Shown: positions 40,704 to 40,874, counted from the stretch's first letter. The stretch is DNA of 64,000 nt from an uncultured Cytophagia bacterium (GCA_964436305.1 CAYTCI010000007.1:20825-84824), one strand, 5' to 3'. Numbers and translations are program-made. Notes: generated by a model from the letters alone, not told the origin.

Positions 40704-40719
40704 GCAAATCATGTACCAA
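40704..40719 (-). promoter_or_regulatory. sigma54 (-24/-12) promoter TTGGTAC-ATGAT-TTGC
   Basis: GG-N10-GC with near-consensus TGGYAC-N5-TTGC, downstream of an NtrC-family activator gene. Confidence 0.7.
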
Positions 40720-40743
40720 GAATTTCGCGTGCACGTCTATTTG

Positions 40744-40756
40744 TAAATCATTGAAA
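40744..40756 (-). promoter_or_regulatory. IHF-like site TTTCAATGATTTA
   Basis: 12/13 match to WATCAANNNNTTR in an AT-rich patch ~30-40 bp upstream of the -24 GG. Confidence 0.45.
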
Positions 40757-40802
40757 TTATTAGGCAAAAACCAAGAAAGAAAGGGGGCAGGAGAGAAAAC
40801 GG

Positions 40803-40837
40803 TGTGACAGCCTGAGACATTGTGCCGGGGTGAAACA
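40803..40837. promoter_or_regulatory. Candidate activator-binding repeats TGTGACA / TGAGACA / TGAAACA
   Basis: Three TGnnACA copies at 40803, 40813 and 40831, ~85-120 bp upstream of -24. Confidence 0.4.
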
Positions 40838-40840
40838 GAC

Positions 40841-40874
40841 AAAAAAGGCGCCCAGCAATTTTGCTGTGCGCCTG
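40841..40874 (-). terminator. Rho-independent terminator after the NtrC-like gene
   Basis: Minus strand AGGCGCACAGC-aaaatt-GCTGGGCGCCT followed by a T run. Confidence 0.75.

Follow-up and report, generated by a model that had tools for sequence, protein, structure and literature searches.

The spacer at 40704-40874 of the window, i.e., of the whole 64,000-nucleotide stretch of DNA analysed here, is probably the control region of a minus-strand two-gene operon that works by a sigma-54 enhancer mechanism. The operon encodes a 360-aa protein and an anti-sigma-like protein. As the first-pass annotation had read it, the region consists of an insulated activator gene followed by upstream sites, a bend element and a -24/-12 promoter, and this order proves to be conserved lineage-wide. 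What is established below is which motifs are present and in what order, how conserved and how specific they are, and of which domains the activator is composed. The annotation had gone further, proposing a cascade from an NtrC-like activator through sigma-54 to an alternative sigma factor. Its sigma-54 enhancer architecture stands, whereas for the second sigma factor the one support is the anti-sigma-like partner gene. The promoter mechanism is ordinary; it is the target family that is new.

Genomic Setting and Comparison Set

The genes concerned all lie on the minus strand, in the order lpxK, the gene for an NtrC-class activator, a spacer of 369 bp, a 360-aa ORF, a 214-aa ORF, a terminator, and the genes for two receiver-DUF4388 proteins (Table 1). 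The neighbourhood is one of lipid A and LPS synthesis. The regulatory module is inserted in this cluster (window 28710-47951), with lpxB, DUF374 and lpxK on one side and a peptidase_MA-like protein, a lipid A acyltransferase, two heptosyltransferases and Sua5 on the other. The two receiver-DUF4388 (PATAN) proteins, of 723 and 361 aa, are encoded consecutively downstream of the operon at 35276-38541 (-) and have their own sigma-70-like promoter at 38621-38593. The 723-aa protein has a long Pro/Ala-rich linker and a C-terminal half without annotation.

By its protein homologues, which come from wastewater and sediment metagenomes, the window belongs to candidate division KSB1 / Calditrichota. 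The comparison set comprises 80 KSB1/Calditrichota loci, obtained by scanning species-representative genomes with an alignment of the 360-aa protein. The lpxK-activator-target order is conserved in 58 of these 80 loci, lpxK itself being detected in only part of the 58. The activator is 75-97% identical across loci, even where target identity is ~42%; among the syntenic loci, identity of the target protein ranges from 40 to 90%. Most of the 80 loci likewise have one or more receiver-DUF4388 genes downstream of the operon. There is none in locus L087, the lipid A/LPS flanks of which are as in the window.

Table 1. Positions of the features discussed, counted from the first letter of the window; dyad centres are given relative to the predicted start.
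Feature	Position	Strand	Remarks
lpxK	42396-43436	(-)	
Third dyad, TGTCTCAaagtaAGACA	42378-42394	(-)	8 bp upstream of the -35 of the activator gene
Sigma-70-type promoter of the activator gene, TTGCAA-17-TATGAT	42341-42369	(-)	TG before the -10; promoter scan
NtrC-class enhancer-binding response regulator	40896-42284	(-)	Receiver, AAA+ sigma-54 interaction domain with GAFTGA, Fis-type HTH
Intrinsic terminator of the activator gene	40840-40873	(-)	Hairpin 40873-40846, T-run 40845-40840
Putative distal upstream activator dyad, TGTTTCAccccggcACA	40821-40837	(-)	Centre ~-137
Putative proximal upstream activator dyad, TGTCTCAggctgtcACA	40803-40819	(-)	Centre ~-119
IHF-like / A-tract putative bend element, TTTCAATGATTTA	40744-40756	(-)	AATAA before; centre ~-58
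Predicted sigma-54 -24/-12 promoter, TGGTACatgatTTGC	40704-40718	(-)	GG 40717-40716, GC 40705-40704
Predicted 5′ leader, ~165 nt, G-rich, noncoding	40527-40692	(-)	Homologues start at MKN...
Target gene 1, 360-aa all-helical protein, unannotated family	39444-40526	(-)	Alternative start 40553
Target gene 2, 214-aa protein, N-terminal C...LE...H-x3-C-x2-C anti-sigma-like zinc finger	38700-39344	(-)	No membrane helix
Operon terminator	38638-38664	(-)	12-pair stem, then T-run

The Promoter

The promoter match, TGGTACATGATTTGC, read from 40718 to 40704 on the minus strand, has the GG-N10-GC arrangement of TGGCAC-N5-TTGC, from which it deviates solely by C to T at -22. Taken from the window alone, the match is only suggestive: TGGYAC-N5-TTGC has a single exact match in the 64 kb, the expectation is 0.19, and 17 of 100 shuffled sequences held at least one match. 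It is comparison with related loci, and not single-sequence statistics, that argues against chance. The pattern TGGTA[CT]-N5-[TA]TGC is present in every one of the 58 spacers that have the activator gene directly upstream, where chance would supply ~0.001 matches per spacer (a rough estimate from the number of specified bases). The TTGGTAC-N5-TTGC that the first-pass annotation had picked out is present on the minus strand, and its TGGTA[CT] core and -12 element are kept throughout the syntenic loci. Moreover, T is 95-100% conserved at positions 10-11 of the promoter, even though the search pattern left position 10 free and allowed T or A at position 11, which leads to the consensus TGGTAY-A-NNN-TTTGC.

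The element is also specific to its place. Across the 808 kb of the 80 loci, TGG[CT]A[CT]-N5-TTGC has 72 matches, and 68 of these are on the strand of the target gene, at most 320 nt upstream of it. Nine loci that fail the strict pattern have xGGCAT-N5-TTGC or xGGTAT-N5-TTGC, with identical GG-N10-GC spacing; in L062, TTGT replaces TTGC, i.e., GT stands for GC. The four sigma-54-type matches outside target upstream regions are at ~10643 (-) in L050, ~5894 (-) in L053, ~510 (-) in L010 and ~926 (+) in L041. L050 and L053 share the identical TGGTATCGAATTTGCT, which may be the sign of a second sigma-54 target.

One divergent locus is counted against the sigma-54 model. L087 (3661-4000) has the lpxK-activator-target order, no clear dyads, and a degenerate GG-N10-GC, AGGGAGTTATAATTGC; the control region of this lineage may have been remodelled.

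A sigma-70 promoter in the spacer was considered and rejected, as neither a promoter scan nor a pattern search gave a match. The latter covered TTGnnn-N16-18-TAnnnT on both strands of the spacer, and agrees with the earlier observation that no good match to TTGnnn-N17-TAnnnT is to be found there. Judged by its sequence, then, the promoter would be one used by sigma-54.

The Upstream Dyads and the Putative Bend Element

Copies of TGnnACA lie at 40803-40809, 40813-40819 and 40831-40837. These are the three repeats of the first-pass annotation, all of which were correctly located; they make better sense as half-sites (three of the four) of two adjacent 17-bp dyads of the form TGT-N11-ACA. In the 64 kb, TGT-N11-ACA occurs five times, a number equal to the chance expectation, and three of the five belong to the activator-target gene pair. 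Counting from the TGG of the promoter, one or more TGT-N11-ACA dyads fall between -140 and -85 in 54 of the 58 spacers, and 25 spacers have two such dyads at a spacing of 18-19 bp. The symmetrised consensus is TGTTTCA-N3-TGAAACA. In most of the closer related loci, the distal dyad sits at -118/-119 from the TGG.

Classic NtrC sites show helix-phased spacing. A spacing of 18-19 bp puts the dimers on different faces of the helix, and is counted here against the sigma-54 enhancer model.

Between the dyads and the promoter lies the IHF-like site that had been noted earlier, TTTCAATGATTTA. It agrees with WATCAANNNNTTR at 12 of 13 positions. No other site in the spacer comes within one mismatch of WATCAANNNNTTR, and in the window as a whole 16 sites do so, or ~0.25 per kb. 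Its position is conserved in the clade of the window, in which CAATAAAWWCAAnnnnTTA stands at a fixed distance from the promoter. In distant clades, a different conserved A/T-rich element occupies the IHF-like position, a point counted against the sigma-54 enhancer model. The element would serve to bend the DNA.

The Target Operon

Target genes 1 and 2 are 99 nt apart, and no terminator is predicted between them. The 360-aa protein belongs to a family with 352 matches in a word-indexed search and 1178 cluster representatives (50% identity, E≤0.001), not one member of which is annotated. The first-pass annotation took this product to be an alternative sigma factor. A full cascade would then have the sigma-54 promoter drive the alternative sigma factor, restrained by a co-transcribed zinc-finger anti-sigma factor.

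The partner gene is what speaks for such a cascade, as the 360-aa gene stands where the sigma gene would in a sigma/anti-sigma pair. The C...LE...H-x3-C-x2-C of the partner is kept in 55 of 62 loci, and C10, H36, C40 and C43 are invariant in 26 orthologues. Thirteen of the 26 partner orthologues match Pfam zf-HC2, the best at 8.7e-7; the window partner itself scores 16.2 bits (E = 0.011), the cut-off being 22.2, and reaches E = 0.016 with NCBIfam RsrA and antisigma. Against the PDB, the partner profile finds RsiW and RslA at E = 0.009, and also ChrR and DdvA, all within a weak range of 0.009-0.2. The association extends beyond the orthologues. Of six distant members of the 360-aa family, which belong to other lineages and are ~25% identical, five have an H-x3-C-x2-C protein encoded next downstream; two of these proteins resemble classic anti-sigma factors in having a membrane helix together with a large outer domain at the C-terminus. 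In addition, a Foldseek search with the full AlphaFold model of the 360-aa protein (pLDDT 82, pTM 0.43) ranked sigma70 first and sigmaS third, though at E = 0.9 and 2.5, with TM scores of 0.14-0.32.

The 360-aa protein itself, however, does not look like a sigma factor. Forty-four distinct family members (sets A1 and A2) gave no Pfam or NCBIfam match at E≤10 (A1) or E≤1 (A2), and so none to Sigma70_r2, r3, r4 or ECF; a PDB search with the family profile turned up no sigma at E≤10; and hhalign gave a probability of ≤1% against RpoE, SigW and FliA, the reference sequences being entered by hand. A model of the N-terminal 165 residues (pLDDT 88, pTM 0.75) had no sigma, and nothing like a sigma region 2, among its best 50 Foldseek matches. 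Neither this model nor the full one gave anything significant, and a Foldseek search of the viral structure library was empty as well. In the C-terminal sequence, no helix-turn-helix of the sigma region 4.2 type was seen. The 360-aa protein as a recognisable sigma factor is thus rejected, with Pfam, NCBIfam, the PDB profile, hhalign and three Foldseek searches all negative, and we regard the full cascade as rather unlikely.

Since the conserved partner carries the H-x3-C-x2-C motif, the 360-aa protein may still be a regulator under anti-sigma control. We offer, as a tentative possibility, that the 360-aa proteins form a large unannotated family of regulators, paired with anti-sigma-domain proteins in nearly all loci checked and without a sigma-70 fold. 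They would then represent a new class of RNA-polymerase partner similar to sigma factors, or else a new type of protein on which zinc-finger anti-sigma domains act. In KSB1/Calditrichota, the pair would have come under a sigma-54 switch inside the lipid A/LPS cluster. No sigma-54 promoter was found at the distant family loci, and the switch therefore appears specific to the KSB1/Calditrichota orthologue group. The distant pairs are at L081 6723-8153, L086 5074-6495, L082 7132-7983 and L085 4003-4593, with T9SS cargo genes nearby. Because of these neighbouring T9SS (Por_Secre_tail) genes, the family possibly occurs in FCB-group bacteria other than KSB1 and Calditrichota.

The Activator and Its Control

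The ORF of the activator reaches back to a TTG at 42296, and the ATG at 42284 is preceded by a GGAGAG ribosome-binding site. Its product, described in the first pass as NtrC-like, is a complete NtrC-class enhancer-binding protein by its Pfam matches (Response_reg 4e-33, Sigma54_activat 4e-73, HTH_8 8e-12, with an AAA+ lid also present) and by an intact GAFTGA, which stands in GHEKGAFTGA. All of these domains are conserved in 57 orthologues. The HTH is the most conserved part, with a mean column consensus of 0.95, which fits a conserved DNA target. The protein scores under all NCBIfam equivalog cut-offs (AtoC 518 versus 714, NtrC 481 versus 559, ZraR 457 versus 760) and is therefore an unnamed member of the NtrC class. 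The GAFTGA loop is essential for contact with sigma-54 (PMC3162934).

The gene is insulated downstream by the terminator that had been proposed for it. Six U follow the hairpin of this terminator (40873-40846), which has a folding energy of -18.8 kcal/mol (z = -2.8). In many related loci, a GC-rich sequence and then a T-run likewise directly precede the first dyad. Upstream, the CTTGnn...TAtnnT arrangement of its sigma-70-type promoter is conserved in related loci. The third dyad, beside the -35, is kept in the broad clade of the window (most of L001-L032, and L043) and is absent from distant clades. A dyad at the activator's own promoter suggests autoregulation.

It had also been said that the cognate kinase is not adjacent, and indeed no kinase gene adjoins the activator gene. 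The only histidine kinase among the ORFs scanned in the window, a protein of 397 aa with HisKA and HATPase_c domains, is encoded ~17 kb off at 22996-24189 (+). No response regulator was identified among the scanned neighbours of this kinase gene, and it is a candidate partner of the orphan activator.

That the adjacent activator binds the dyads is suggested by adjacency and by the third dyad. A second alternative keeps the sigma-54-dependent promoter and has the dyads read by another regulator or enhancer-binding protein, with the adjacency of the activator being no more than inherited gene order. Consistent with it, promoter and dyads are still present in most loci that lack an adjacent activator gene, and the third dyad could equally be a site for another factor controlling the activator gene. 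Against it stand the gene order kept in 58 loci, the match between the most conserved part of the activator, its HTH, and the conserved dyad, and the concentration of dyads at the activator-target pair. There is, moreover, no other conserved gene for a DNA-binding regulator nearby, the two receiver-DUF4388 proteins being without a Pfam DNA-binding domain. We judge this second alternative to be distinctly unlikely, and retain the adjacent activator as the putative reader of the dyads.

Start Site, Leader and Sigma Factor

As sigma-54 transcription would begin ~12 nt downstream of the GC at 40705-40704, the start is predicted near 40692, the position that the first-pass annotation had correctly derived. 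Seven public RNA runs had fragments, and four of these runs were aligned with the region. Their metatranscriptome contigs are 150-270 nt long with a depth of 2-4; one (40602-40763) spans the predicted start, and fits DNA carry-over or read-through. The high RNA depth at 41140-41824 comes from the AAA+ domains of other activators.

The nearest relatives have a predicted leader of 168-186 nt, and distant clades one of ~45 nt. The whole window has no Rfam match; thus, the long leader is not a known riboswitch. A longer reading of target gene 1, from an ATG at 40712 that overlaps the promoter, was rejected: its first 62 codons are noncoding, as homologues start MKN... and the sequence upstream is not conserved as protein. 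Public gene calls include N-terminally extended products of 394 and 419 aa.

Motif searches of the six-frame translation of the window and 841 kb of related loci found no rpoN (RpoN box), and a motif search of the same sequences found no HU/IHF gene signature; both results are counted against the sigma-54 enhancer model. A search of the literature on sigma-54 in KSB1 or Caldithrix found nothing usable. It is highly improbable that the motifs serve a role other than in sigma-54 transcription, as the promoter of another sigma factor, a leader-RNA element or repressor sites against activator read-through. Such a role could be argued from the negative rpoN search, the RNA contig that crosses the predicted start and the long G-rich leader. 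Against it stand the invariant GG-N10-GC with its TTTGC -12 element, a sigma-54 signature in a spacer without a sigma-70-type match, and the neighbouring activator with its intact GAFTGA, which is not known to have any role apart from sigma-54 (PMC3162934). The strong terminator, moreover, places the motifs upstream of, not inside, any plausible transcript.

A Model for the Switch

We propose that sigma-54 RNA polymerase would wait as a closed complex on TGGTAC-N5-TTGC. The NtrC-class response regulator would be phosphorylated by a kinase encoded elsewhere, bind the two dyads (~-137 and ~-119) via its Fis-type HTH, and then form its ATPase ring. The A/T-rich IHF-like element near -58 would bend the DNA, such that the ring could reach the polymerase, and ATP hydrolysis via the GAFTGA loop would open the promoter, with transcription starting near 40692. 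The activator gene, insulated by its own terminator, would be read from the sigma-70-type promoter with the third dyad, allowing autoregulation.

For a phylum that has few or no members in culture, this promoter region is a clean instance of the classic sigma-54 enhancer layout, validated by comparison among loci. TGGTAY-N5-TTGC and the activator site TGTTTCA-N3-TGAAACA can be used for annotating these genomes. The more interesting outcome is a by-product, i.e., a widespread unannotated family, without a structural match, that in nearly all loci checked is coupled to a zinc-finger protein of the anti-sigma type. If our tentative proposal for this family is true, its placement in the lipid A/LPS cluster links envelope state to a new transcription programme. 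Should the 360-aa proteins bind RNA polymerase, the repertoire of sigma-like factors is wider than recognised; should they not, anti-sigma domains control other kinds of protein.

Comparison with Known Systems

The operon resembles those in which the ZAS/zf-HC2 anti-sigma factors RsrA, RsiW, RslA and ChrR are paired with ECF sigmas. It too has two genes, its second product starts with H-x3-C-x2-C, and distant relatives of the partner show membrane-spanning architecture. It differs in that the first gene encodes no sigma-70-family member by the tests run, and in that the window partner is soluble and below the Pfam cut-off.

At nif promoters, the NifA-type upstream activator sequence is TGT-N10-ACA and is accompanied by IHF; NtrC acts at glnAp2 and also has sites at the sigma-70 promoter glnAp1. 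The present arrangement is alike in having a TGT...ACA dyad ~100-150 bp upstream of the -24/-12 element, a putative bend element between the two, and an activator-type site at a sigma-70 promoter. In contrast to the NifA-type site, the central spacing here is N11 rather than N10, the half-site is extended to TGTTTCA, and two dyads lie 18-19 bp apart. The activator also differs from NifA, having a receiver domain rather than a GAF domain and falling below every NCBIfam equivalog cut-off.

In the Rrp2-RpoN-RpoS pathway of Borrelia burgdorferi, which together with the hrpL system is the nearest described counterpart, an NtrC-like response-regulator activator likewise turns on a second global regulator via sigma-54. 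Rrp2 has been reported to act without a defined enhancer site, whereas two conserved dyads and a putative bend element are present here; the target there is RpoS. The pathway is an instance of indirect sigma-54 control, exerted via another sigma factor (cited in PMC3162934).

The hrpL promoter of Pseudomonas syringae, served by HrpR/HrpS, sigma-54 and IHF, has the same order of activator sequence, IHF site and sigma-54 promoter, and its target is a regulator gene, not a structural operon (PMC5263251). The activators differ, as HrpRS is a heterohexamer of two proteins without receiver domains, and the activator here is a single receiver-containing NtrC-class protein. The targets differ as well: HrpL is a bona fide ECF sigma factor, whereas the 360-aa protein, which has no sigma-family match, is co-transcribed with an anti-sigma-like protein.
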